From positions 17,330 to 49,329 of the forward strand of contig JBHLMI010000019.1 of the NCBI GenBank assembly GCA_048938295.1: a DNA stretch of 32,000 nt. Direction: 5' to 3'. Position numbers and translations under genes: made by a program. The DNA comes from Promethearchaeota archaeon (lineage in GTDB: Archaea > Asgardarchaeota > Hermodarchaeia > Hermodarchaeales > Hermodarchaeaceae). The notes under the pieces were generated by a model. That model had not been told where the DNA came from. It made no database searches and saw only the letters and a list, made by a program, of their open reading frames with translations. Below are positions 3,961-23,799 of this stretch, in pieces (within the stretch, counting starts at the first letter, position 1; each line of letters starts with the position of its first letter).

Positions 3961-5175
3961 TTAGAAGTATACGACATTATACAGGGGGAGAGGTGGGAAC
4001 CACCGTTGAAGTGCATGTCTAGCCCATTCTTCTGTGATTGATAGTTCAGCTTGAAACTCTAATTCCTCTATTGGATGTGTTCCGTAGACTAAGGCTGAGA
4101 GCGCTTGAATGGTAGCTGTTACTACAGGATGCCCTGAGCTTTTAGTTAGTCGTAGGCGTCCCTTTTCTGATTGAAGTGAGAAGATTCCATTGTTCCAGGG
4201 ACAGTTGGCATCTGTGAGTTCGATGGTGACGGTGTCATCTCCAGCACCTGGAAGGTTTTGGACTGCGTTCTTCGCGTCGATGATGCGAACCATCCAAGGA
4301 GTTCTAGCCTGATTAACTTTCAACTGTGCATCTTTGAACCAATGTTCAACCTTGGTATCGAAGGGAGCATGTATGCGGATATTTTGAATTTGGTCCTGGT
4401 GTTGTTTGAAAAAGAAAAAGAGCTTGTCACGAGCTTCTCGAGTTCGCCATAAGAGATCGAGGACATGCATAGTGGAGTGGGTTTCACCTTCGATTTGTAC
4501 TCCTTTAATCCGATACCGGCTTAAAGCTTGGATTTGGCCCTTATATTTGACAAAGACAATGAGACTTTCCTTTGTAAACTGTCTCCACAGAGCATCAGGG
4601 AAGGTTTTGAAAATGAGGTAACCGTGATAGTGTGTAGGACCTATTTCGCAGACAAATTTTAGATATTCTTCTTTGGCATTTCGTGCGCGAACCCTCTCAA
4701 AGGTCCAGTCCAGATTCGGTTGTGTTGCGTCGAATATGTTAAGCTGTTTGAGCGGGGCTTGTACAATATATGCGGTATTTGCTGCAACGTACCCGAATTG
4801 TTCATAGTAGCTTTGTTTAAAGGGATCGAGCATACTGACCGGTTGCCCCTTCTCGTGCATCATCTTGAACCCTTCCTGCATTAATTCCCGCACATATCCC
4901 TTCCGCCGCGCTTCCGGGTATGTTGCAATACCAGCTACCCCTCCACAATCCTTGAGTACACCACGGATTGATTGTTGGAATTCGTGGACGCTTAAAGAGG
5001 AGACCAAGCGCCCTTTTTCAAACAGCCCCAGAGTTTCTTGTTCAATAATGAGATCTAGTTCTTCGCTCTTCTCATCCTGATCTGTCCATTCCGTGTATGC
5101 ATATCGGTAGAGCGCCATGATGGCAGGGCGTTCATTCTTGGTAATTTTCCGAATTTCCTTCATCAGAAGATCCAT
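3961..5175 (-). CDS. Eis-like GNAT acetyltransferase (tandem GNAT plus SCP-2-like C-terminal domain)
   Basis: Acetyl-CoA motif GVAGIATYPEARRKGYVRELM, YYEQFGY, PWMVRIID, D..CPWNNG, and a C-terminal Phe as in Eis proteins; about 400 aa. Confidence 0.85.
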   Translation of the reverse strand: MDLLMKEIRKITKNERPAIMALYRYAYTEWTDQDEKSEELDLIIEQETLGLFEKGRLVSSLSVHEFQQSIRGVLKDCGGVAGIATYPEARRKGYVRELMQEGFKMMHEKGQPVSMLDPFKQSYYEQFGYVAANTAYIVQAPLKQLNIFDATQPNLDWTFERVRARNAKEEYLKFVCEIGPTHYHGYLIFKTFPDALWRQFTKESLIVFVKYKGQIQALSRYRIKGVQIEGETHSTMHVLDLLWRTREARDKLFFFFKQHQDQIQNIRIHAPFDTKVEHWFKDAQLKVNQARTPWMVRIIDAKNAVQNLPGAGDDTVTIELTDANCPWNNGIFSLQSEKGRLRLTKSSGHPVVTATIQALSALVYGTHPIEELEFQAELSITEEWARHALQRWFPPLPLYNVVYF

Positions 5176-5249
5176 CCTAGGCTACTCAGGTACAATGATA
5201 AAACCTGTTAAATCCTTTTTTGCTCCAATATACCAAGCAGTGAGCAACG

Positions 5250-6230
5250 ATGAAGAAGAAACCAACACTCGTACTTTACCATCCTTTAATGGCTGTTGAG
5301 GGGTATCCGGTACTAGCTGGTCGGGTGCAACCAGCGTTTGAATATTTACGCGACACGGGAACATTGGAGTCTCCTCAGGTTATTGTAGAAGAAGCGCCTA
5401 GAGTAGGTGAGGATTTGCTCCTGCAGGTGCACACCCCTGGTCACATTCAGCATGTTAAAGGATCAGGGTATGATTCTGCTTCGCTCGTGTCAGGTGGATC
5501 CGCGGTGAGAGCAGGTGAAGCGGTTTGGGTTGGTGAAGCAGCGAATGCGTTTGCTTTTACTGGCTGTGCTGGACACCACGCTAGTCGTGATTCATCCTGG
5601 GGTTTTTGCTATTACAACAACTCTGCCCTACTTGTCCGACATTTGCAAAAAGTACATGGAGCCAATCGATTTTTCATCGTTGATACAGACCCCCATCCAG
5701 GGGATGGAACCCGTGACATCCTCGGGAATGATGAGGAAGTATACCATTTAAACTTCGAGGCGAGTTTCCGGGAAAGCCTGGATACGGTGACGCAGCGGCA
5801 TGTGGATGTCCCTTTCCCCAGTTCGAGTAGTGATGACTCCTTTGTAGAAGCTGTGCGTCTCCTAGCGCTGCCCTTGGCACGACGAATCCGTCCTGAGATT
5901 ATTTTTTGGAACATGGGCCATGATGCTCATGCGCTAGACTATGGTGGGTTTAATCTCTCGTTAAGGGCATTTCCCGCTATGACCGAGATACTGCTCCAAG
6001 CTGCAGATGAAGTCTGTGAAGGTCGGTTGGTGGTGCTACTCTCAGGTGGCTCTGAGGTATCTGTGGCAAAGCATGCAATATCTGGTATTGTAAGAAAACT
6101 AGCGGGTCTACCTCAATTGCCTGAAGATGTGCAAGATGAGCCTACGACGGAGTCAGCAGCAACGAAGCGGATGGCAGAAGAGATAATCATGAAAGTACGT
6201 TCCAAACTAGGTCTGGATGAACCCAGCTAG
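5250..6230 (+). CDS. Histone deacetylase-family (Zn-dependent deacylase, AcuC/AphA-like) protein
   Basis: VHT..H, GHHA, GFCYYNN, IVDTDPHPGDGT (metal DxDxH) and GHDAH..D. The terminal motif is LSGGS instead of LEGGY. Confidence 0.88.
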   Translation: MKKKPTLVLYHPLMAVEGYPVLAGRVQPAFEYLRDTGTLESPQVIVEEAPRVGEDLLLQVHTPGHIQHVKGSGYDSASLVSGGSAVRAGEAVWVGEAANAFAFTGCAGHHASRDSSWGFCYYNNSALLVRHLQKVHGANRFFIVDTDPHPGDGTRDILGNDEEVYHLNFEASFRESLDTVTQRHVDVPFPSSSSDDSFVEAVRLLALPLARRIRPEIIFWNMGHDAHALDYGGFNLSLRAFPAMTEILLQAADEVCEGRLVVLLSGGSEVSVAKHAISGIVRKLAGLPQLPEDVQDEPTTESAATKRMAEEIIMKVRSKLGLDEPS

Positions 6231-6661: not shown

Positions 6662-7123
6662 TCAGCTAGTACTGCCAACTTTTTCCCAAGTTTTCCATTT
6701 ACCTTGGGATCGCTGCACTAACACGAGGCCAAAGCGTTGCCAGATTTCTTCTCGGGTGAGAGGTTCTTCGGAGTCCGATTCCATTTGACTTGGGTGGCGT
6801 GGTTTCTCTAAAACAGAAGGTCTAGTATAGAAGAGGGAGTCGATGAGGGCACCCACACGACCTTTCTGATATTGATCTTTGACGAAGATGAGGAGCTGTT
6901 CTGTGGGAATATCGGCCACTTGCAAGGAATGGCGGGCCACTCCTTGGCTAAACGAGGGGCAGACGCCACCCATGGTGTTTTGGACAATTCCAAGACATTG
7001 GGGATCAATGAAAAATTGACAACGTAGACATTGGTGCCATCCCTTCTGGATCGCCTCTTCAAGTGTGATTCGGGTTCCGCAGGCGACACAACTGATGCCA
7101 ACGGTGGAGAGATCAAGTTTCAT
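6662..7123 (-). CDS. RING-like zinc-finger protein (Nse1-type ligand spacing), last clear gene of the SMC operon
   Basis: C-x2-C-x16-C-x2-C-x4-D-x2-C-x11-CP-x8-H. I moved the start from 7207 to the ATG at 7123 (MKLDLS...), which overlaps the KITE gene end by 11 nt; 153 aa. Confidence 0.7.
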   Translation of the reverse strand: MKLDLSTVGISCVACGTRITLEEAIQKGWHQCLRCQFFIDPQCLGIVQNTMGGVCPSFSQGVARHSLQVADIPTEQLLIFVKDQYQKGRVGALIDSLFYTRPSVLEKPRHPSQMESDSEEPLTREEIWQRFGLVLVQRSQGKWKTWEKVGSTS

Positions 7124-7697
7124 TCGCGTCTTCCTCCGAATCAGCTGTGGCTCCTGCGAGATACAGGGTTGCCGCAGTAGCGATGGCTTCACGACGTTCA
7201 GCATCAAATTCTAATTCAAGCCGTGGACCATAAGCAAGGCGTCGTGCAGTTCGCGTAATATAGCCCAGTTCGATTAATCGTCGTAATATGCGATCGAGTT
7301 GGTAGCGGGAGAGGCGCCCGCGGGCTACAAGGATCGTTTCGATGTCTTTTGTGGCTACCTGGCGTGGACGACGGAGTTTACTCACCCGTTCCACAGTGGA
7401 AATGATGACTCCCAATACCGCGTATTCAGGATCGGTGAGTTCGCCAGGTACCCCGTAAATGGTTCGAACACAGTAAAGCGTGTCCCGTCCCATTCGATAT
7501 TCAACCAATTCTAGTCCCAGAGGAGATATCTGTTGGCGGAGTAAATCGAGAAGACGGACTAAGCCAGTCTTGTTGACATGAAGGGCTTCTAAAAGATCTT
7601 GCCGTTTGACCCCGATGCTGAGTTGACCTTCCTCATTTCGAAACCTTGCTGTGAGGGCCGCAAAGAGCTGACCAAGGAGATGACGTTGTTCTATCAC
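7113..7697 (-). CDS. KITE-family tandem winged-helix protein (Nse1/Nse3/ScpB-like SMC accessory subunit)
   Basis: 194 aa, two predicted winged-helix units. LRQQISPLGLELVE, LTDPEYAVLGVII, L..LIELGYI and the C-terminal YGPRLELEF resemble Nse1/MAGE-Nse3 KITE patterns. Lies in an operon with the SMC gene. Confidence 0.7.
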   Translation of the reverse strand: MIEQRHLLGQLFAALTARFRNEEGQLSIGVKRQDLLEALHVNKTGLVRLLDLLRQQISPLGLELVEYRMGRDTLYCVRTIYGVPGELTDPEYAVLGVIISTVERVSKLRRPRQVATKDIETILVARGRLSRYQLDRILRRLIELGYITRTARRLAYGPRLELEFDAERREAIATAATLYLAGATADSEEDANET

Positions 7698-7756
7698 CTC
7701 TTCCTCTGTATCCTTGCTAGTGGAAGAGATAGTGTCAGAAGGTATCGGATCTGAGG

Positions 7757-8548
7757 TTATTGCCGAGGAACCTCCTCATGGTTTTGTGCGGTAATGGCAA
7801 CAGCAGCGAAGGCAGGATTCGATTTAGGCGGAGGGCCTCGAAAAATGATTGCTGTTTTTTCGAAAATTGCAGGGCAGATGTTATCACGAATCATTTGACT
7901 GAGTAGATCGAGTTCCCAATTGGTCAGGATTTCTGATAAGGCTGCATAGTTGAAACGTTTGCCCTGTAGCCGTTTTAAGATAGCCGTCCTTCTAGCGTCA
8001 AGGGCGTCAATGGAGATTTGTTCAAATGAGATACGATGTTTGCGCATAGCCTGTTTATCATCCTGGGTAGGAGCGTGGTCCAATGCGACGGGTGAATCAA
8101 CAGAGGGCAATTCGAATGGTGGGATTGTCCGCTCTTGATTAATTAGAAAGAGTAAGGGAGTCGCGCGCCGTTTAATCTCATTGGCAAACTGAGAAATCCA
8201 TTCTTCGGGAGCAATTTCAGGAGCAGCTAATTGAGAATCTCGGTGATGCTGCATTGAAGCGAGAGTATAGTAGAAACGTCCGTCAAGAGTTCGTTCCCAG
8301 GGCGTTTCGAGGATGCGATATGCATCAGCAACTTCTTCACGGTCAACCTCCGCTTCCTTAATCGGAAACGTGTTGTGCTGTTTTAGGGCAACCTCATACT
8401 TTTTGGTCAAGTTCCATAGTGTAATTACAATCCCTTTGGTTCCAAAGGATGTGAGGCGTGTTCGCTTGTAGTTGTATTGGAAGGTGTCGTACCAGGCTTT
8501 GCGGCGCGGAAAGGCACGGAGAAATGTAGAGGTATCATTGGTAATCAT
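7757..8548 (-). CDS. Putative kleisin (ScpA/Nse4-like)
   Basis: Start overlaps the SMC stop (TAATG). The segment VDREEVADAYRILE...LDGRFYYTLASMQHHRDSQL resembles the archaeal ScpA N-terminal helices. A Pro/acidic linker is followed by a C-terminal winged-helix-like segment (IL..L...FNYAAL...LSQMIRDN). Similarity is weak and judged by eye. Confidence 0.5.
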   Translation of the reverse strand: MITNDTSTFLRAFPRRKAWYDTFQYNYKRTRLTSFGTKGIVITLWNLTKKYEVALKQHNTFPIKEAEVDREEVADAYRILETPWERTLDGRFYYTLASMQHHRDSQLAAPEIAPEEWISQFANEIKRRATPLLFLINQERTIPPFELPSVDSPVALDHAPTQDDKQAMRKHRISFEQISIDALDARRTAILKRLQGKRFNYAALSEILTNWELDLLSQMIRDNICPAIFEKTAIIFRGPPPKSNPAFAAVAITAQNHEEVPRQ

Positions 8549-11442
8549 TAGGCTTTCACCTGTCCTTTGATCAGCACTACGTGATGCATAGTTTCTGGAA
8601 TTTCGAGTCCCACCGTGGAGGGGGCCATTAGAAGAAACTGAGGATGAATTAGTGAGTCTTCCTGGGTTAAATCGAGAGCGCGTTGAACTACACTGAGAAT
8701 AGCTGCTCGGCTTGCTTCATCGAGGCGTTGGGTAAATTCATCAATGACATGGAGGGGACTCTTGGCAAGAGTGTGGAGGGCTAAAATAAAAGTCTGGGTG
8801 GCTAGGACCCGTTCGCCTCCAGACATTTCTTGATAGGTCCGCCAGTCGCCTTTGCGGTTAATGGCAAGTTGAAGGTGCAGCTCCGCACGACTGGGTTCAT
8901 CGGGGAATCGAATAAGCAGTTTGACTTGCTTAAGGAAGTGGCTGAGTAATTGGTTCATGCGGTGGTTGAGGGTTTCAACCGTCTCTTGAAGCTGCCGTCT
9001 CCACTCGAGTAGTCTTCGATCAACGTCTGTCATCAGATTTTCTAAGTGGAGCTGACGTTGTTTTAGGTAGTCTTGGAGTTGGGAGACGACTTTTTCCTGG
9101 TCTTCAAAGGCTTGCCGATCTTCTGCTGTGGCGGTGATAGTATCAATCATCGCTTGGAGTTGGATTTGTTCATCACGAACGGCTGTAGGGTTTCGAACAG
9201 TCTGTGGACGTTCTCCCAGCGCAGTGGCAGCCTTGCGGAAGTCCTTAGTTTGTTTTATGAGATGCTCATATTCATCTTCGCGTTGCTTGAGTTCTGCAAC
9301 GAGGTGGTTGATTTCAACCTGACGACGGGATCGTCGGAGGTCAAGGTTTTGGAGTTGTTCGGATAACTTTTGCTGTCGCGAGTTCAGCGGTGATAAGTCT
9401 GAGCTACATTCTTGATAATCTTGGCTGAGTCTGTCGCATTCAGTTTCCAGTTCAAGAATCTGTTGTTGTAATTCGGCTACGCGGTGTTCAGAACCAGTGA
9501 CCAGGGCTGTTCTTTCCTCATCAGAAAGATGAGATGAGTGGACTTGCTGAAGGTCTTGGAGGGTTGCCCGTAATTGGCTTATTTCAGAATTGATATGCAT
9601 GCGGTCTCGCATTAAGCGAGCTTCTTGTTCCCGAAGTTCACGGAGTTGGATGCGTGTGTCAGCGCCGTCCTGAGCTAGCCCCAAATCTTTGAGTGATACA
9701 TTCAGACTGACCGTAACTGGTCGGGGTGGTCGTGCAAAGGCACCGATCCGGAGATAATGACTCGTTCCTTCGCTAGTGATAATGTTGCCATTGAGTTGCT
9801 GAGAGGCATCGACTAGCGTATTGGGGTCGGCTCCTTCCTCTGCGATGGCAGTGTTTACGACTCGACTTAGGAAACTAATGGCATAGATATCCCCTTCAAT
9901 GAGATCAGCAGCCCACCCAATGACAGGTGAAGAGACCGTGGGGCGATCTCGAGCTATCGCGGTGGTGGGGTTTGTTCGGGCGACCACCAAATCTGGTTTT
10001 TCATTTGGCCAGAGATGATCATAGAGGTTTTTAGCCTCAACGAAGACCTCTCGGTTCAGGGCAATGAATGCATAGGTGTAGCGGCCCAATGCCAGTTTGA
10101 CTGCGGTTTCGTACTGTGCATACTCTGGTTTCATACGAATAAGCGTAAAAAGGGGCCCAATCACTGCATCAGAGAGTGCTAGTTTATCAAGTTCAGACCG
10201 GTAACGAAGACAGGCCCGAAGTATCGTCTCTTCAAAATGTGGATACCGTTGGGGTTGAGTAAAGAGGTGCTCCTCCGTTATGGCAATATCTTGTCGGACC
10301 TGAACAAGTTGATCATCGATACCATCCCGATCCTGTATAATCGTCGCTAATTCTCTCTGAATGTCGTCAATTTTGCTTTTTGCGGGTTTCCGACGTTTGT
10401 TGTACCGTTCTGTTCGAGCTAGCATACCTTTGAGTTCGTTTTCTAGCCCTTGTCGATGACCTTGGGCTTGCATCCTTTCATCGCGTATCGAGTCCATGGT
10501 TGTAAGGAGCTTTTCCCGTTTTGCTTCAATCGCTTCGAAGTTCTCTTTCAGGTTGGCTTTCCTTTCGTCTAACTTAGCCATTTTCTCGTTTTGGTCGGTG
10601 AGTTGGGTTTCAAGGCTGGTAAGTTGCGATTGGAGTTGGCTAGCGAGTTCTTCACGATAAGTCACTTCAGCCCAGGCAGCTTCAACATCGAGATCCTTCT
10701 GCCTTTGTTGGAGTTGCTGTTTTTGCTGAAAAGCTTCATAAGCTGCCTTTAGAACCTGAAGGCGCTGTTCTTCGTGGCGGATTCGGTATTCGAGGGGTTT
10801 GACATTGGCTTTAGCCTGTAATACGAGGAGACGGGCTTCCTCGAGTTTTTCCATCCAGTTGCGGAGCCCAGTTTCGTTCAAGAGAGTCTCGAATTTCCGC
10901 CGTGGGGATTGGGAGGCAAAGTGGTCTAAAGTCTCAGCCTCAGTAACGGCTAGGGGAGAATCCCCAAAGAGTCCAGCCGCTTGAAAGAGTTTCCGAATGT
11001 CCTTCCGAGCAATTTGCTGGCCATTCAGTGAGCGTTTTCCATTCAACCAGTAGGATATCCGGTTCGTTTCATCGACTCGAAGTCGAATCGATACAACATC
11101 CGTATCAAGAAGCGTAGACATGGCAGGATCTGGGCTTCTTAAGACACGTCGACCGTTGAGTTGGTAGTTGTTAAGTTCTAGAATGACTTCAGCATATTTG
11201 TTGAAGCGACCGATGAAGGCCGAATTGCGTTGGCGTTGGGCTCTTCGAGATTCAACGCCAATGGCGAGTAACAGGGCGTCGAGAATCAGGGTTTTTCCGC
11301 TTCCGTTAGAACCTGTAATTAGTATGACAGGGGATTCATCGAGTTGGATTTTGGTGTCACGGTGAATGACAAAGTTCACTAGGCGGATGCTGCGAAACAC
11401 GACTGATGAAGTTGATAGGGACATCTCGTGCCTAGTGGTCAT
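8548..11442 (-). CDS. SMC-family ATPase of the Smc5/6-related type (964 aa)
   Basis: IRLVNFVIH; Walker A GSNGSGKT; long coiled coils flanking a hinge (VIGPLFTLIRMK...YETAVKLALG); signature MSGGER; Walker B/D-loop LHVIDEFTQRLD; terminal QFLLMAP with no His switch, as in Smc5/6 (QFILLTP/QYFFITP). Confidence 0.9.
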   Translation of the reverse strand: MTTRHEMSLSTSSVVFRSIRLVNFVIHRDTKIQLDESPVILITGSNGSGKTLILDALLLAIGVESRRAQRQRNSAFIGRFNKYAEVILELNNYQLNGRRVLRSPDPAMSTLLDTDVVSIRLRVDETNRISYWLNGKRSLNGQQIARKDIRKLFQAAGLFGDSPLAVTEAETLDHFASQSPRRKFETLLNETGLRNWMEKLEEARLLVLQAKANVKPLEYRIRHEEQRLQVLKAAYEAFQQKQQLQQRQKDLDVEAAWAEVTYREELASQLQSQLTSLETQLTDQNEKMAKLDERKANLKENFEAIEAKREKLLTTMDSIRDERMQAQGHRQGLENELKGMLARTERYNKRRKPAKSKIDDIQRELATIIQDRDGIDDQLVQVRQDIAITEEHLFTQPQRYPHFEETILRACLRYRSELDKLALSDAVIGPLFTLIRMKPEYAQYETAVKLALGRYTYAFIALNREVFVEAKNLYDHLWPNEKPDLVVARTNPTTAIARDRPTVSSPVIGWAADLIEGDIYAISFLSRVVNTAIAEEGADPNTLVDASQQLNGNIITSEGTSHYLRIGAFARPPRPVTVSLNVSLKDLGLAQDGADTRIQLRELREQEARLMRDRMHINSEISQLRATLQDLQQVHSSHLSDEERTALVTGSEHRVAELQQQILELETECDRLSQDYQECSSDLSPLNSRQQKLSEQLQNLDLRRSRRQVEINHLVAELKQREDEYEHLIKQTKDFRKAATALGERPQTVRNPTAVRDEQIQLQAMIDTITATAEDRQAFEDQEKVVSQLQDYLKQRQLHLENLMTDVDRRLLEWRRQLQETVETLNHRMNQLLSHFLKQVKLLIRFPDEPSRAELHLQLAINRKGDWRTYQEMSGGERVLATQTFILALHTLAKSPLHVIDEFTQRLDEASRAAILSVVQRALDLTQEDSLIHPQFLLMAPSTVGLEIPETMHHVVLIKGQVKA

Positions 11443-11684
11443 TCTCTCGAGTGCACTCCCGCGGATTATCCTGAGCAGTTGGCATATTCAATATTGCCCA
11501 AGTACAGTAAGTCACAATAATTCGTCACTCTTAAACTTTCACTCCAACCAAAGACGAAGCGCCATTGCTCTGTGATTTTGAGCCGACCTATTCTCTTTCA
11601 TGATTAAAGAAGGACGAGCATGCGTCTAAGATTCGAGTAAAGTTAAAGTGCGTGCTGTGACCTTCCCCTTGTAGGTGAATAGTA
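11443..11684. promoter_or_regulatory. Divergent promoter region between the SMC operon and the Ubl operon
   Basis: 242-bp non-coding gap. TATA-like GTTAAAG at about 11642-11648 and SD GGTGA at 11674-11678 precede the TTG at 11685. On the minus strand, TTTAAG at about 11530-11535 and GGGAG precede the SMC ATG. Confidence 0.5.
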
Positions 11685-12005
11685 TTGAGTAAAGATGAAG
11701 GATTTTGGCGCTCAATCATCGTCGATGTTGAACCCCGTCAAAAGGAATTCCGAATCGGCATTGATGAAGATACCCGTGTCGATGAAGTCATCCGCACTCT
11801 TGTCACCCAGGCCCGTGATGAGGGCGTCAGTATTGACGATTGGGCTAAAGCAAAAATCGGGGACCAGCGTGCAGAATTTGTGCTCATTCGTAAAGCCCCT
11901 GAACCCACCAGGTTAAGCCCAGGTGTAACCTTCGGAGAGCTGGAACCAAAAATCACAGATGATGAGTTCTTCCTCCTCGATGTTGTCCCTGAAGTCGGAC
12001 AATAG
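11685..12005 (+). CDS. Ubiquitin-like (beta-grasp) protein, C-terminus ...VPEVG-Q
   Basis: beta-beta-alpha start (SIIVDVE..KEFRIGIDEDTRVDEVIRTL), later RLSPGVTFGEL..ITDDEFFLLDV matching the Ub/YukD pattern L....TL.D..I.D.D.L.L. First gene before the E2; E1 and JAB genes nearby. Confidence 0.75.
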   Translation: MSKDEGFWRSIIVDVEPRQKEFRIGIDEDTRVDEVIRTLVTQARDEGVSIDDWAKAKIGDQRAEFVLIRKAPEPTRLSPGVTFGELEPKITDDEFFLLDVVPEVGQ

Positions 12006-12056: not shown

Positions 12057-12800
12057 ATGATCCGACCAGTATTTTCTACCGAGCTGTTTAACGCCAGAGT
12101 GGAAACCCAGATTCAGACATTCTTTGATACCATGAACAATCTCTTTGGACGACGAGGATGGGATCCAGATCCTCCGCACCGCGAAGATACCGTCTGGAGC
12201 AATCGCGATTTCACCGTTGCTATCATCGATCGATACCGTGATGGGGCGTTTAAACGGATTCGCTTCACTATGCGTTATCTTCCCGGGTTCGTTCGTAAAC
12301 CCAGAAATCTAGAGGATACAAACGCTATACGTTATGAGCATCGGTTTGTCTTTGATTTACCCCGAGAGTATCCTCAGAACATCGGCACTATTCGACCTAT
12401 AGCCGAAACACCTCTGTATCACCCCAGACTAGCGGCTAGTGGAACTGGACATGCCTGCTACTCGGTTCGTGGGGAATTAGATCGTATCCTCGAAGATCTC
12501 CCCTTTTTTGTATTGCTAAAACCAGATCGAGTAGAACCACCATCTCAGTTTCAATCTGACCACGGTCTAAATATGGCCGCTATGGCGTGGTATGAGCAAG
12601 ATACAGATAGAATCGTTGAAACCTTAGATCAGCTCTGGGAAGCCCAGCACAAAGATGGTCCAGCTGCGCCTTCACGACAGGGACGGGTGCGTATTCTTGA
12701 AACCTCATCGACTAGCGGGCATTCAGGTCGAAGGTCACCCCGCGTTTTAGATGAACCAAGTAGACATACATCGGTTCGGATTCTAGATGATGAGAGTTAG
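12057..12800 (+). CDS. E2 ubiquitin-conjugating (UBC-fold) enzyme with a disordered C-terminal tail
   Basis: FVFDLPREYPQ...ETPLYHPRLAASGTGHAC (catalytic Cys134 candidate; HPN changed to HPR), then the DHGLNMAAMAWYEQD helix equivalent to D.PLN.EAA.LY; SD GGAG at 12047-12050. Confidence 0.8.
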   Translation: MIRPVFSTELFNARVETQIQTFFDTMNNLFGRRGWDPDPPHREDTVWSNRDFTVAIIDRYRDGAFKRIRFTMRYLPGFVRKPRNLEDTNAIRYEHRFVFDLPREYPQNIGTIRPIAETPLYHPRLAASGTGHACYSVRGELDRILEDLPFFVLLKPDRVEPPSQFQSDHGLNMAAMAWYEQDTDRIVETLDQLWEAQHKDGPAAPSRQGRVRILETSSTSGHSGRRSPRVLDEPSRHTSVRILDDES

Positions 12801-12814
12801 ATGAGGTACCAACC

Positions 12815-13033
12815 ATGCCGGATTCACCTTTAAAGGAGAATGACACCCCCGACGAGCATGAGGAAGAGCTTGACAAATCATCGAAGGAACCTGAGAGGAA
12901 ATCGCGGATTCAGATTCTCCGAGAGAGAGACATTCCCTTTGAAGAAGAACGTCCTCCCAACTTCTCACCCTACTATTCCATTATAATTCATGGCAAAAAG
13001 AAACGATCTGAGCTAAAGGAGCGAGAGTCATGA
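12815..13033 (+). CDS. Small acidic, probably disordered protein (72 aa)
   Basis: GAGGT site upstream; stop overlaps the next start (ATGA); carries an RIQILRE motif like those in its neighbours. Confidence 0.55.
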   Translation: MPDSPLKENDTPDEHEEELDKSSKEPERKSRIQILRERDIPFEEERPPNFSPYYSIIIHGKKKRSELKERES

Positions 13034-13425
13034 GTGTGCATGGTGCATCCCAAATGCGGTGTGCGGCCTGTGCCACTCAAGTTTCACTTGAAAATGCACG
13101 GAGCCAATGGTGGATTTGCACAGTCTGTGGCAGCTATGTCTGTCCTTCGTGTCGTGCCCTCTTCTTAGAATCAGGGCAAGACACCTGCCCCGGAGCAATT
13201 GTCCGTGGCAGTGAAGCCCACTCTCCCCACTTTACTCGGTTTTTGGGCCCTCGACTGGAATCGGAAAGTCAACCTGCTGAGACACGAAGGCCTGTGAGAA
13301 TATTAGGTGATGTCTCCAGACACTCACCTCAACCACCGGGTGGAAAAGTAGTTATTCTGTCAGATGAAGAGGGAATCGAATCCAGCTCTGAAGCCGACCA
13401 AGTAGGTCGAGATAATGACGAGTAA
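13030..13425 (+). CDS. RING-like zinc-finger protein (putative E3) with a disordered acidic tail
   Basis: C11-x2-C-x15-C-x2-C-x4-C-x2-C-x11-CP-x9-H64; tail contains PVRILGD and KVVILSDEEG; overlaps both neighbouring genes. Confidence 0.75.
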   Translation: MSVHGASQMRCAACATQVSLENARSQWWICTVCGSYVCPSCRALFLESGQDTCPGAIVRGSEAHSPHFTRFLGPRLESESQPAETRRPVRILGDVSRHSPQPPGGKVVILSDEEGIESSSEADQVGRDNDE

Positions 13426-15016
13426 CCTCCCCCTGTCTTTAAAAATCATCGCCCCTACGAGGCAAGATGGTGTTCCTAGAGTTAAAGCCGGTCAACGCAT
13501 TTCTATTCAGTTGCAACGAAAAGGTCAAGCAAAATCGAATATTAAGGTTGACAATGGGGTCGTATACATCAATGATCCCTTCGGGCGCATGGTGAGTAAG
13601 GTCCCTTTTCATTTTGGCAAAACTAATACAGGTGAATTTAGCGTGCCACTGACGGCAAACCTGCTGTCTGGATTCTATACAATTCTCGTTGCTTTGCAGG
13701 AAACCCGCATCAAGCTCGCCGTCGATAAGTATCCCTATCGGGGACCTCCCAACGATCATTATGTCATGGGATGCTTTCTCTTAGAAGGAGGACATCCACC
13801 CATTGTAGTACACAGGGTCAATTATTCGGCGACCGTGAAGAACATTACACGTGCTCGAATCAGCGATGTTCGAGTCATAATCGCTGCTCCACCCTCGCTA
13901 CCTCCTCGACAAACGGTTCTAGATATTAGGTTCTCTCCGAAGGATGGACAACAACAGAATGATACCATCGGAAACCAATGGATTCGATTTCGTCAAGGAA
14001 GCCTTGCTGTGGGAGAATCCTTTACTTGTGGGTACACCGCGCTCATTCGGAATCGCGCACTCCGGTATAATATTCCGCCAGAAACTCACAACTCAACGTT
14101 ACCAGCTAATATCGTCAAGTTCACCCAACCAGAGAATTTCATCGAATCACACCACCACCTCATCAAAGATCTTGCTCGTGATATTGCAAAAAATCATTCA
14201 ACACCAATACAATTTGTACAAGCAGCGATGAGGGTAATTACAAAGAAGATGCGGTATGTTCGTCAAGAGTATGAAAGAGGAGCAGCCTACGCTATCGAAA
14301 AAGGGGTTGGTGATTGCACTGAATATGCCGCTCTATTTGCTGCGTTGTGTCGTGCGAACAAAATCCCAGCCCGATTGGAGGCAGGCTATGCCTTTGATGG
14401 ACAGTCCTGGGAACGCCATGCTTGGAGTGAAATTTGGATTCGGGGCCAATGGATCCCGGTTGATCCAACCTGGCATGGGGCTATGGGATTATTGGGAGTG
14501 ACAAACCGACATATTCCTCTTATCATTGGAAACTGGATGGATACTCGCATCCGCCAAGAATTCAAAGTCAGCTGGTACTCTGATACTGTTGCTCTTGATG
14601 GAAAAAAGGGTGAGCGTTCTGAGCCCAAGATTGAGACGGGGTGGAAGGTGAAACGGGTGGTGGGTGTCCCTGAATCAATTCCTACTCGGTTGAGAGAAGC
14701 CCCCGCAGAATTAGAGGTTAACGTCCCTGATGCTGTCCCACGTGGGAGTACATTGCCCTTGAAGGTCTCATTGATCCCAAAACCGAGTCGTGCCCATCCA
14801 CTAGACCAAATGGTGATGACGGCAACCGTTTCAGATGGCCTCATGGACCAAGTAGTGGCTATTGAACCCTTTGCACCTCGATTAGATTCCCCAGTGAATA
14901 TACGGATGAACCTCCCCATGCCAAATGGGGCCCCTAAAATCACTCTAAATCTCCGCTTATGGGCTGACCAGAAACCCACCGCAACGGTCTGGCAGAAGAC
15001 CATCGGCTTACTTTAA
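13415..15016 (+). CDS. Transglutaminase-like (Cys-His-Asp) protein with Ig/MG2-like flanking domains
   Basis: GDCTEYAALFAALCRA..IPAR (Cys), HAWSEIW (His) and VDPTW (Asp). The N-terminal VYINDPFG...GEFSVPL....SGFYTI resembles a macroglobulin MG2 domain. No obvious signal peptide. Confidence 0.85.
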   Translation: MTSNLPLSLKIIAPTRQDGVPRVKAGQRISIQLQRKGQAKSNIKVDNGVVYINDPFGRMVSKVPFHFGKTNTGEFSVPLTANLLSGFYTILVALQETRIKLAVDKYPYRGPPNDHYVMGCFLLEGGHPPIVVHRVNYSATVKNITRARISDVRVIIAAPPSLPPRQTVLDIRFSPKDGQQQNDTIGNQWIRFRQGSLAVGESFTCGYTALIRNRALRYNIPPETHNSTLPANIVKFTQPENFIESHHHLIKDLARDIAKNHSTPIQFVQAAMRVITKKMRYVRQEYERGAAYAIEKGVGDCTEYAALFAALCRANKIPARLEAGYAFDGQSWERHAWSEIWIRGQWIPVDPTWHGAMGLLGVTNRHIPLIIGNWMDTRIRQEFKVSWYSDTVALDGKKGERSEPKIETGWKVKRVVGVPESIPTRLREAPAELEVNVPDAVPRGSTLPLKVSLIPKPSRAHPLDQMVMTATVSDGLMDQVVAIEPFAPRLDSPVNIRMNLPMPNGAPKITLNLRLWADQKPTATVWQKTIGLL

Positions 15017-15020
15017 CGGG

Positions 15021-15884
15021 TTAGGTATGTTTCCGCTTATCACGACAGAATATTTCTGTACACCGTGGATTTGCCATAATTGGTCCTGTCATGGATTTAT
15101 GCTTGTGTAAGTCGTATTGGATGAACCGACCAAGGGCTGGTTCGAGTCCCTCCTGCCATTGCCCCGTTTGTCGCCATTGCTGTAAACCAGCAAGCATCTT
15201 TGTGGCTTCCCACGACATCACTGCCCCCACAATGGAGGTCACGAAACTAATCATGGGAAAGCGTGGCATGGTGTCAACGAAGAAGGGATCACATCGGGTG
15301 CGTACTTCGTTGGCGATGACATGATCGACGAAGTCTTTACTCCACGAACACACTAAGCACGCTGTCTTAGGTGGCACGAGGACTTCAACAGACACGAAGT
15401 CCTTTCCCATAGCCCCATTTATCACAGGCAAGGGTGACTCTAAGCTGAGATTCTTGGCATTCAATAGATAACGGGCATAATGGTTGTCAACACCGATCAA
15501 CACCAAGTCAACATCCCACACTTTGTCTGGAGCCGCCTGTACCGGTACAGCATGCGGTTCAACCACTGTATCGGTTGCGAGTTCCGGGAGCCGTTCAGCT
15601 ACTGCATCAACTTTGAACTTTTCATCGTGGTCTCCTGGACGAAAGAAGACACAGCGGTTCAAATTGGAGGCTGCTATTTTATCAGGATCCACTAAAACGA
15701 TTTTTCCAACTCCTAACAAGCCCAGGTTCTTACAGACCTCATTTCCGACTGCCCCTGCTCCCACCATCAGCACCGTTGACTGACGAACGGTCTCAAGATT
15801 GGTAGCCCCCAACCAGCGTCGTGTGCGATCATGCTGATCCTTCTCAAAATACTCTAAATCAATCGGTGTGGGTTTCTTCGTCAT
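15021..15884 (-). CDS. E1-like Ubl-activating enzyme (ThiF/MoeB/E1 family)
   Basis: VLMVGAGAVGNEVCKNL, DPDKIAASNLNR, KVD, GVDN..AR, Zn sites CLVC (176/179) and CTEIFC (275/280), catalytic Cys candidate at 198 (VRTRCD). Confidence 0.9.
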   Translation of the reverse strand: MTKKPTPIDLEYFEKDQHDRTRRWLGATNLETVRQSTVLMVGAGAVGNEVCKNLGLLGVGKIVLVDPDKIAASNLNRCVFFRPGDHDEKFKVDAVAERLPELATDTVVEPHAVPVQAAPDKVWDVDLVLIGVDNHYARYLLNAKNLSLESPLPVINGAMGKDFVSVEVLVPPKTACLVCSWSKDFVDHVIANEVRTRCDPFFVDTMPRFPMISFVTSIVGAVMSWEATKMLAGLQQWRQTGQWQEGLEPALGRFIQYDLHKHKSMTGPIMANPRCTEIFCRDKRKHT

Positions 15885-16482
15885 CGTGAGGTTCCTCCTT
15901 ATGGTGTAGCGAGTTATCCTGGAACATTACTTCTCCAGCTGGAACTGATGGATGATAGGTACACCATTGCACTCGTTCTAGCTGTAAGCCGGGCTCATCG
16001 GATCGTGGCCGCAGCATATACACTTTGAAGATCCGGCTGATGGGATCAATCAGGAAGAAGATGTTGCCCTCAGCGCAGAAAGGCGTGTTGAAGAACGTGC
16101 GTAAATCCGTTGAGGAGAACTGCGGATCGCCACCAAAAGGATGGGAGTGCCAGAGGCCGACGACACGAGGAGAATGGGGATTGTTGCCATATCGATCGTG
16201 AAGGGTAAGCCGATATTCGAAGATACCTTCCGGAGTGAACCGGGCATGGGCGATACTGGCTTCTACGTGTCCAGAGGCCCAATCGGTGACACGGATATAC
16301 TTCGCGCCCTGCCATTGTCGACGGAAGCCCAGAATAACGCCCAGGGCTTCACGAGGAGATGTCCCTGTGGCTTCTTTGAGACAATAGTTGAAGATCGCTT
16401 TACAGGTCCTTTCAAAGACGTAGACAGGGAAGACGGTTGGAGTCAATGGTTCTTCTGTGGAATACTGTCCGGGTGTTGTCAT
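15859..16482 (-). CDS. JAB/MPN+ (JAMM) metalloprotease, putative Ubl maturase/deconjugase
   Basis: REALGVILG (catalytic Glu) and VVGLWHSHP...FSSTD (HxH-x-S-x2-D type JAMM motif); overlaps the E1 start by 26 nt. Confidence 0.9.
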   Translation of the reverse strand: MTTPGQYSTEEPLTPTVFPVYVFERTCKAIFNYCLKEATGTSPREALGVILGFRRQWQGAKYIRVTDWASGHVEASIAHARFTPEGIFEYRLTLHDRYGNNPHSPRVVGLWHSHPFGGDPQFSSTDLRTFFNTPFCAEGNIFFLIDPISRIFKVYMLRPRSDEPGLQLERVQWCTYHPSVPAGEVMFQDNSLHHKEEPHDDEETHTD

Positions 16483-23202: not shown

Positions 23203-23799
23203 TCAGGTTGCAGTTGTGAGTAGAGACTGAGGCTCAGCTGTGGTTATCCGAGTCCACATGAGATTGGCTATGATTTCGAAGGCTTTGGTCACGTTATAGC
23301 CGTCCTTAGCACTTGTTTCCAAGTAACCAGCTAAATTATTTATTTGCGTATAATCTCTTGCTAGATCGCTGTTTTTATCCCCGGCATCTCGTTTGTTTCC
23401 AACGAGTAAAATTGGAATTTCATCAGTATTGCTGCGAACTAAAGTTAGCCATTGATCTAGATGGTAGAAGGTGGGAGGACGTGTAAAATCGAATGCCAGA
23501 ATACAGCCGAGGCTTCCACGGCAATAGGCTGGTAAAAGGAAGCGGAACCGCTCTTCACCTGCAAAATCCCAAATTGTTAAGGTGATAATTACTCCTTCCA
23601 TGTTAAGGTCGCGGGTTGCGAAACCAGAACCAACCGTCATACGTTGGTCAAGATAATTGCCTGTTAAGTATCGATGGATGAGAGTGGTTTTTCCCACACC
23701 TCCATCCCCAACGACGATTAATTTCAAAACTGCTTTTCGGGGTAGACATGCATCTCCTGTGGATACCCATCCGATTGGGTTTGAATGCAACTCGATCAT
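23203..23799 (-). CDS. Ras-superfamily small GTPase, Rab-like
   Basis: G1 GDGGVGKT, G2 MTVG, G3 WDFAGEERF, G4 GNKRD, G5 ETSAK; no C-terminal Cys prenylation motif. Confidence 0.93.
   Translation of the reverse strand: MIELHSNPIGWVSTGDACLPRKAVLKLIVVGDGGVGKTTLIHRYLTGNYLDQRMTVGSGFATRDLNMEGVIITLTIWDFAGEERFRFLLPAYCRGSLGCILAFDFTRPPTFYHLDQWLTLVRSNTDEIPILLVGNKRDAGDKNSDLARDYTQINNLAGYLETSAKDGYNVTKAFEIIANLMWTRITTAEPQSLLTTAT

Follow-up and report, generated by a model that had tools for sequence, protein, structure and literature searches.

Here, we describe a gene for a ubiquitin-like protein (Ubl) in a stretch of 32,000 nucleotides from the metagenome-assembled genome of an Asgard archaeon of the Hermodarchaeota (Promethearchaeota archaeon, GenBank assembly GCA_048938295.1, contig JBHLMI010000019.1, positions 17,330 to 49,329), which is called the window in the following. 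The gene is located at 11685..12005 on the forward strand of the window. With a probability that we put at about 0.75, its product is a conjugatable modifier made as a short pro-form, with Gly105 as the reactive end and Gln106 as a residue that is removed. The gene defines a beta-grasp modifier family missed by current domain libraries, and it is part of a lineage-restricted conjugation system with a Val-Gly reactive end. The Gly-Gln end as such is an ordinary pro-Ubl feature within this new family, and it is the family and its system, not the terminal residue, that deserve interest.

The open reading frame starts with TTG, 6 nucleotides behind an AGGTGA box that was read from the sequence as a Shine-Dalgarno-like ribosome-binding site (11673..11678, forward strand), and translates into 106 amino acids with the C-terminus ...LLDVVPEVGQ. 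The conserved C-terminal dipeptide Val104-Gly105 is encoded at 11994..11999 on the forward strand, with GGA at 11997-11999 for Gly105, the putative site of adenylation by an E1 enzyme. It is followed by CAA at 12000-12002 on the same strand for the non-conserved Gln106, a candidate one-residue pro-peptide, and by the stop codon TAG at 12003-12005. An earlier sequence-only reading of this stretch had described a single Gly plus a terminal Gln in place of Gly-Gly, and the translation confirms this. An identical protein is already on record (P0002), and the depositors' names for the organisms of close homologues are Hermodarchaeota, Odinarchaeota or Promethearchaeota.

An AlphaFold2 model, computed from an alignment with 17 homologues, predicts a beta-grasp fold (pLDDT 85.6, pTM 0.78). 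Foldseek searches of this model against the PDB returned SUMO-1/Smt3, ubiquitin, NEDD8, FAT10, Hub1, Caldiarchaeum ubiquitin and the ubiquitin-like domains of EccD, with TM-scores of up to 0.78 (target-normalised) and a probability of 1.0 to SUMO, ubiquitin, NEDD8 and FAT10. This is in good agreement with a second, independent structural alignment against representatives (VIA), where Z-scores of 9-10.7 were obtained and the top 50 matches are almost all ubiquitin-like beta-grasp domains. Neither ranking places any one modifier, SUMO or ubiquitin included, as nearest to the Ubl. The sequence-only reading had staked its identification on a beta-grasp fold, which is indeed what the predicted structure exhibits; the assignment as a Ubl is further borne out by the linkage of the gene to those of a protein with an E2 fold, of an E1 and of a JAB protease. 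At the sequence level, the protein matches nothing in Pfam (E<=0.01), NCBIfam or PADLOC, and its 23 relatives hit only beta-grasp families below threshold in the domain libraries (YukD, RA, PI3K_rbd). The family profile gave nothing significant against PDB sequences (best 5zmb, E 0.07), and a look-up of the Ubl in a protein atlas led to generic beta-grasp clusters only, all below 0.9.

A reactive Gly105 is suggested by the C-terminus across relatives. These were compared as 21 clusters at 90% identity, as 34 representatives (50% clusters) from a profile search that covered 1.8 billion proteins, and as 32 genomic loci, related loci being found with an E2 alignment as query; the wider-family alignment holds 23 members. 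The conserved end is Val-Gly in all relatives compared, except for Val-Ala in a few distant members. Val104, directly before Gly105, is invariant across the wider-family alignment, Gly105 is invariant among the Asgard members, and many of the 50%-cluster representatives terminate exactly at the Gly of the profile. What follows the Gly is highly variable: the tails in Hermodarchaeota read Q, K, QKQ, VLP, F, FSS, IK, I, L, D, RK, E, R, G, KVEA or none, and in Heimdallarchaeota, Asgardarchaeum abyssi and a fourth Asgard family the stop stands directly after the Gly (11 out of 11 distinct loci).

The same boundary is visible in the DNA. Across 16 Hermodarchaeota loci the Glu-Val-Gly codons exhibit only synonymous differences, which together with the conservation at the protein level supports the reading frame. 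The bases 3' of the Gly codon diverge like an intergenic spacer (CAA TAG, AAA TAA, TTC TAA, GTC CTG CCC TAA, TGA). Among the Hermodarchaeota, 18 distinct loci have their in-frame stop 0-3 codons past the Gly, on average 1.4 codons; in the two remaining frames, which served as a control, the first stop occurs at a median of 11 codons, and within 3 codons in only 7%. The loci are related and not independent samples, and these figures are to be taken as an indication and not as a formal test. The placement of the stop close behind the Gly is unlikely to be due to chance. A conserved Val-Gly with a variable short tail is the hallmark of a C-terminal Gly that reacts and behind which a brief neutral pro-peptide is tolerated, and it leaves no specific role for the Gln. 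Single-base changes that make or remove a stop codon let such tails come and go freely. A comparison of the terminal G-x among homologues had been proposed in the sequence-only reading; its outcome is that the G is kept, apart from the Ala in a few distant relatives, and that the x is unconstrained.

This pattern also decides on a second proposal of that reading, namely that Gln106 is itself the reactive residue, deamidated or cross-linked to Lys by a transglutaminase in an E1-independent manner, as in Pup with its GGQ end or in the MavC reaction. A protein with a transglutaminase core and an intact triad is indeed encoded in the same operon. Gln106, on the other hand, varies even within the genus (K, F, I, L, D, multi-residue tails, none), other Asgard families keep the transglutaminase-fold gene, yet their Ubl ends at Gly, and no invariant Gln is found anywhere in the 23-member alignment. 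We reject this proposal as extremely improbable, because a transglutaminase reaction aimed at a Gln requires that this Gln be conserved. The resemblance to Pup and MavC, which consists in a Gly-Gln end and the proximity of a transglutaminase-type enzyme, is superficial. In the intrinsically disordered Pup, the C-terminal Gln or Glu is both conserved and reactive, and the Gln of ubiquitin on which MavC acts is internal and invariant, whereas the Ubl of the window is predicted to be folded. Neither pupylation nor MavC-type ubiquitination thus describes this protein.

Downstream of the Ubl gene, at 12057..12800 on the forward strand, lies the gene of an E2-like protein of 247 amino acids. Its structural model shows a UBC fold (pLDDT 78.5 overall, >90 in the core), for which the top 50 Foldseek matches are all E2 enzymes, with UBC9, Ube2G1 and E2-25K first. 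The protein has no PF00179 match. A search of its family profile against the PDB gave approximately 35 sub-threshold E2s, all of which place the PxxYP...HPx...C block on H122-P123-R124...C134, and these four residues are invariant among the E2 homologues. The protein ends in a tail that is predicted to be disordered and has repeated motifs. Within this tail (12684-12797) we observe hydrophobic-acidic motifs, RVRILE, PRVLDE and VRILDDES, that resemble SUMO-interacting motifs (SIMs) and are conserved in E2 homologues, including a fusion protein in Planctomycetota (RVTVLES). SIM-like motifs also occur in two further proteins with tails predicted to be disordered: a 72-amino-acid protein (RIQILRE; 12815..13033, forward strand), whose gene comes after that of the E2 in one Planctomycetota locus as well as in Hermodarchaeota and Heimdallarchaeota, and a Cys-rich zinc-finger protein of 131 amino acids (VRILGD, VVILSDEE; 13030..13425, forward strand). 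The latter has a weak RING-like match below the cut-off (PF14569, E 0.0016) and is paralogous, according to tblastn cross-hits, to the protein encoded at 6662-7207. Both zinc-finger proteins show weak RING- or C1-like matches only; they may act as E3 enzymes, and the 131-residue protein is a candidate E3 or adaptor.

On the opposite strand, and converging on the Ubl operon, a ThiF-type E1 of 287 amino acids is encoded at 15021..15884 (PF00899, E 6e-35). It carries G42xG44xxG47, N76-R77 (NLNR), D133 (DN..AR) and the zinc cysteines C176/C179 (CxxC) and C275/C280 (Cx4C). Its orthologues conserve these nucleotide-binding (glycine-rich loop), Arg-finger, Asp and Cys4 zinc motifs as well as an invariant C198. 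This Cys is located 19 residues past the CxxC, a position which we take to resemble that of the crossover-loop catalytic Cys of small E1s. In the PDB, the enzyme matches best with the active adenylation domains found in UBA6/UBA1 (E 7e-20), against 3e-10 for UBA5 and 2e-7 for MoeB.

Since the enzyme belongs to the ThiF/MoeB family, the Ubl might also be read as a sulfur carrier of the MoaD/ThiS/Urm1/SAMP type that is thiocarboxylated by it. We find this reading scarcely credible. The E1 is closer to the eukaryotic adenylation domains than to MoeB, no rhodanese or sulfurtransferase partner occurs in the cluster, and three other ThiF-family genes are present in the genome for housekeeping roles. 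Furthermore, the Ubl ends in Val-Gly and not in Gly-Gly, and it is accompanied by a UBC-fold E2 with a conserved Cys, encoded right beside it, by RING-like fingers and by a JAB. What the Ubl exhibits are three of the features of the functional class of conjugatable modifiers: the predicted fold, a C-terminal Gly with a dispensable tail, and a cognate E1, E2 and peptidase.

Two enzymes of the locus are candidates for the removal of the tail. A JAB/MPN+ metalloprotease of 207 amino acids is encoded at 15859..16482 on the reverse strand (PF14464, E 5e-9), with E45 and H112-x-H114-x8-S123-x2-D126 kept in all orthologues examined. The last gene of the Ubl operon (13415..15016, forward strand) encodes a transglutaminase-fold, papain-like enzyme of 533 amino acids (PF01841, E 3e-24) with conserved C301, H335 and D350 and without a membrane segment; its nearest solved relative is 3isr, annotated as a putative cysteine protease (E 8e-8).

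From these data we infer the following course of events. Gln106 would be a neutral one-residue tail that is removed from the pro-Ubl after Gly105. The linked JAB, which would reverse conjugates as well, is the most likely enzyme for this step, and the transglutaminase-fold cysteine enzyme is the alternative. Gly105 of the trimmed Ubl would then be adenylated by the ThiF-type E1, probably with a thioester on Cys198, and the Ubl would be passed to Cys134 of the UBC-fold E2 and ligated to targets. The zinc-finger proteins and the SIM-like motifs in disordered tails may help target delivery, possibly to a neighbouring SMC (structural maintenance of chromosomes) complex or its chromatin substrates.

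The first proposal of the sequence-only reading, that the JAB removes the Gln and that the exposed Gly is activated by the E1, fares well in its trimming and activation parts, which are well supported by the conserved Val-Gly, the tails of 0-3 residues and the many ends at Gly; the assignment of the trimming to the JAB is the more conjectural part. The precedents that had been named for it, JAMM enzymes acting on Caldiarchaeum ubiquitin and in bacterial Bil systems, both check out, as CsRpn11 with pro-CsUb and as BilC with BilA. CsRpn11 removes 9 residues from pro-CsUb (87 to 78 amino acids) and also deconjugates (PMC6043591). The JAB protein BilC cuts Ensifer aridi BilA precisely behind Gly97 and so removes Ala98, an extra residue that blocks adenylation according to the crystal structure (10.1101/2023.09.26.559546).

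The presence of a tail tracks neither the JAB gene nor the transglutaminase-fold gene: both are found in tailed (Hermodarchaeota), tail-less (three other Asgard families) and fused (Planctomycetota) lineages, and gene presence or absence therefore cannot choose between the two enzymes. Since the JAB is kept where the Ubl is tail-less, its core role must be deconjugation. In another reading, a division of labour, the transglutaminase-fold enzyme would remove the tail as a Ubl-specific cysteine peptidase and the JAB would be a deconjugase only. The conserved triad, the missing membrane segment and the relationship to 3isr are in agreement with such a role, and so is the position of the gene, which belongs to the Ubl operon of Hermodarchaeota and Asgardarchaeum and is found on the same contig in five Heimdallarchaeota genomes; a stand-out relative occurs in the Planctomycetota genomes. 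In addition, eukaryotic Ubl-processing enzymes are mostly papain-like cysteine peptidases. Documented prokaryotic precedents of tail trimming, however, use JAB enzymes, the linkage in Heimdallarchaeota is loose (8-41 kb), and this enzyme, too, is kept where the Ubl is tail-less. As a whole, we judge this division of labour rather unlikely. Provided that trimming takes place at all, we give the JAB somewhat better than even odds of being the trimming enzyme and regard the transglutaminase-fold enzyme as a minority candidate; what is left falls to some other peptidase.

Several findings weigh against a Ubl that is trimmed and conjugated. The JAB is retained in Heimdallarchaeota, where the Ubl is tail-less, and its conserved job is thus not tail trimming alone; the transglutaminase-fold enzyme as a second candidate peptidase co-occurs in every lineage checked. 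The E2 has HPR, not HPN, and its fold match is moderate, with TM-scores of 0.45-0.6 (target-normalised). The E1 is minimal and has no recognisable E2-recruiting domain, and a few distant Ubl relatives end in V-A, not V-G. Finally, the Ubl of Planctomycetota is fused to, or read through into, the E2 and could be a domain that is not cleaved. In three genomes of this phylum the Ubl frame runs past Val-Gly into the N-terminal helix of the E2, and in-frame Ubl-E2 fusions exist as well (P0028, P0038).

In the three Planctomycetota metagenome-assembled genomes, which stem from different studies, we observe the same arrangement: the read-through is followed by a run of 9-10 A, behind which the E2 core continues in another frame (L072:8582-9531, L073:8612-9546, L074:4999-5924). 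This reflects either programmed slippage that yields a Ubl-E2 fusion or a recurrent homopolymer error in assembly.

The fusions, together with the V-A ends and the SIM-like motifs, which suggest non-covalent docking, would fit a beta-grasp protein that is never conjugated and binds non-covalently, as a subunit of the E2-like protein and the SMC module or as their adaptor, its C-terminal Gly being structural. We consider this very unlikely. A stop held 0-3 codons past an invariant Gly is the mark expected of a reactive C-terminus, the position of the E2 catalytic Cys is occupied by an invariant Cys, and, even where the genes are unlinked, the Ubl is accompanied by the JAB and by a dedicated E1 whose adenylation motifs are intact and which has the invariant Cys198 and the cysteines of the zinc site. 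Nor is a fusion unusual for a modifier: ubiquitin is normally made in the form of fusions, such as ribosomal-protein fusions, and then cleaved.

Among known systems, Bil (BilABCD of Ensifer aridi) is close to the conjugatable Ubl proposed here. Ubl, E2, JAB and E1 are encoded by separate genes, BilA has a single Gly plus one extra residue (Gly97-Ala98), and the removal of this residue by BilC before E1 adenylation is the exact logic proposed for Gly105-Gln106. Unlike in Bil, the Ubl and E2 of the window match no PADLOC Bil model, the JAB has generic PADLOC matches only, and the E1 matches BilD weakly (1.2e-7), below its generic E1-E2 matches. Further differences are an E1 of only 287 amino acids without a separate CYS domain, the Asgard archaeal host, and a linkage with SMC-operon, zinc-finger and transglutaminase-fold genes in place of a recognised phage-defence island. 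Judged by the BilA-D models, the system does not belong to Bil. The ubiquitin operon of Caldiarchaeum subterraneum likewise comprises an archaeal cascade of E1, E2, RING protein and ubiquitin, in which an Rpn11-type JAMM enzyme trims pro-ubiquitin and deconjugates (PMC6043591). Caldiarchaeum-type ubiquitin matches PF00240 and ends in Gly-Gly, whereas the Ubl of the window ends in Val-Gly and matches no ubiquitin model, and hence falls outside this family; moreover, the E2 is much more divergent (HPR, no PF00179) and the E1 shorter.

A canonical system is present in the same genome on another contig (C53; L081:1120-1695 and neighbouring genes), where a RING-H2 protein, a tail-less PF00240 ubiquitin of 81 amino acids (...RTEGG), a PF00179 E2 and an E1 of 358 amino acids are encoded. 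This ubiquitin gene is the only one in the genome that matches PF00240. Because the genome carries this operon, the cascade of the window is a second, divergent system beside a canonical eukaryote-like ubiquitin operon in the same cell. The organism thus offers a natural setting in which to ask how one archaeon keeps two E1/E2 cascades apart.

The Val-Gly end with its tail recalls UFM1. UFM1 has a single terminal Gly after Val and a short removable tail (VG-SC in human), is activated by the small ThiF-like E1 UBA5, and is trimmed by cysteine peptidases (UfSP), not by a JAB. The Ufm1 model PF03671 matches nothing in the genome or among the 23 Ubl family members at E<=1, and UFM1 is absent from the top 50 of the Foldseek and VIA searches (among the matches listed). 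The E1 scores 7e-20 with UBA6 vs 3e-10 with UBA5, and the E2 is similar to UBC9 and other canonical UBC enzymes and is not identified as UFC1. An identity of the Ubl with UFM1 is therefore not supported. Structural UFM1 homologues of Asgard archaea have been described in nine major clades (PMC12962969), unlike the Ubl family of the window, which was found in four families only.

The partnership of SUMO with Smc5/6-Nse2 offers a further likeness: SUMO is among the best structural matches of the beta-grasp modifier, UBC9 among the top matches of the E2, pathway proteins carry SIM-like motifs, and the genes are coupled to an SMC-family complex. SUMO, for its part, carries its tail behind a Gly-Gly, and the peptidases that trim it are cysteine enzymes (SENP/Ulp). 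A sequence relationship to SUMO is not apparent, and the structural scores do not separate SUMO from ubiquitin.

The SMC module occupies 6662-11442 on the reverse strand of the window. It consists of an SMC-family ATPase (8548-11442), a protein of 263 amino acids (p263; 7757-8548), a winged-helix protein of 194 amino acids (p194; 7113-7697) and the above-mentioned zinc-finger protein of 181 amino acids (p181; 6662-7207), all four encoded on the reverse strand. A PDB sequence search shows that the ATPase belongs to the SMC family, but nothing narrower such as an Smc5/6 identity. Within Hermodarchaeota the whole region is syntenic, which is weak evidence of an association, with operons that diverge and converge. 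In Heimdallarchaeota (approximately 50% identity) the genes follow each other on a single strand in the order SMC-p263-p194-p181-JAB-E1-Ubl-E2-p72. In Asgardarchaeum abyssi the set is split, with SMC-p263-p194-p181-JAB-E1 on one contig and Ubl, E2, a small ORF (open reading frame) and the transglutaminase-fold gene on another. The block SMC-p263-p194-p181-JAB-E1 is intact in three Asgard families, even with Ubl-E2 at another locus. In both Heimdallarchaeota and Asgardarchaeum abyssi we observe the SMC module directly upstream of JAB-E1 (L047, L069, L070, L089). The three Planctomycetota genomes carry Ubl-E2 at approximately 40% identity and, each at a separate locus, an E1 (46-48%), a JAB (41-47%) and a stand-out relative of the transglutaminase-fold enzyme (30-34%). 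The arrangements in Heimdallarchaeota, Asgardarchaeum abyssi and Planctomycetota therefore demonstrate that Ubl, E2, E1, JAB and the transglutaminase-fold enzyme co-occur through rearrangement, splitting and dispersal. The distribution of the Ubl family is patchy, with 31 of the 400 Asgard genomes searched, belonging to four families.

Implementing these facts, it is tempting to regard the Val-Gly cascade, with its E1, HPR-type E2, JAB, RING-like fingers and transglutaminase-fold enzyme, as a dedicated protein-modification arm of the archaeal SMC complex; we put this forward as a tentative reading that we think less probable than its negation. If true, the eukaryotic partnership of Smc5/6 with its SUMO and ubiquitin ligases (Nse2, Nse1) would have a prokaryotic antecedent or analogue in this cascade. 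The system raises the question whether SMC complexes were already subject to Ubl modification before eukaryotes arose. The Nse1 RING protein and the Nse2 SUMO ligase have been stated to be eukaryotic additions (10.1101/2024.01.07.573240). None of the papers searched describes a Ubl system of Asgard archaea that includes a transglutaminase-fold enzyme or is linked to SMC.

Some further neighbours were observed. The SMC module of the window is flanked, at 3961-6230, by a gene of the histone-deacetylase family (5250-6230, forward strand) and a GNAT/Eis-like acetyltransferase gene (3961-5175, reverse strand), and the deacetylase gene stays beside the module in the Hermodarchaeota relatives. In one Planctomycetota locus (L080:8385-10304) the E1 orthologue abuts a downstream gene with weak matches to the arrestin N and C domains, the latter below the Pfam cut-off, and in another locus (L079) the E1 gene is paired divergently with that of an AAA+ ATPase which carries a winged-helix domain. 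Finally, a Ras-family small GTPase, a typical Asgard eukaryotic signature protein, is encoded at 23203-23799 on the reverse strand of the window (PF00071, E 1e-36).

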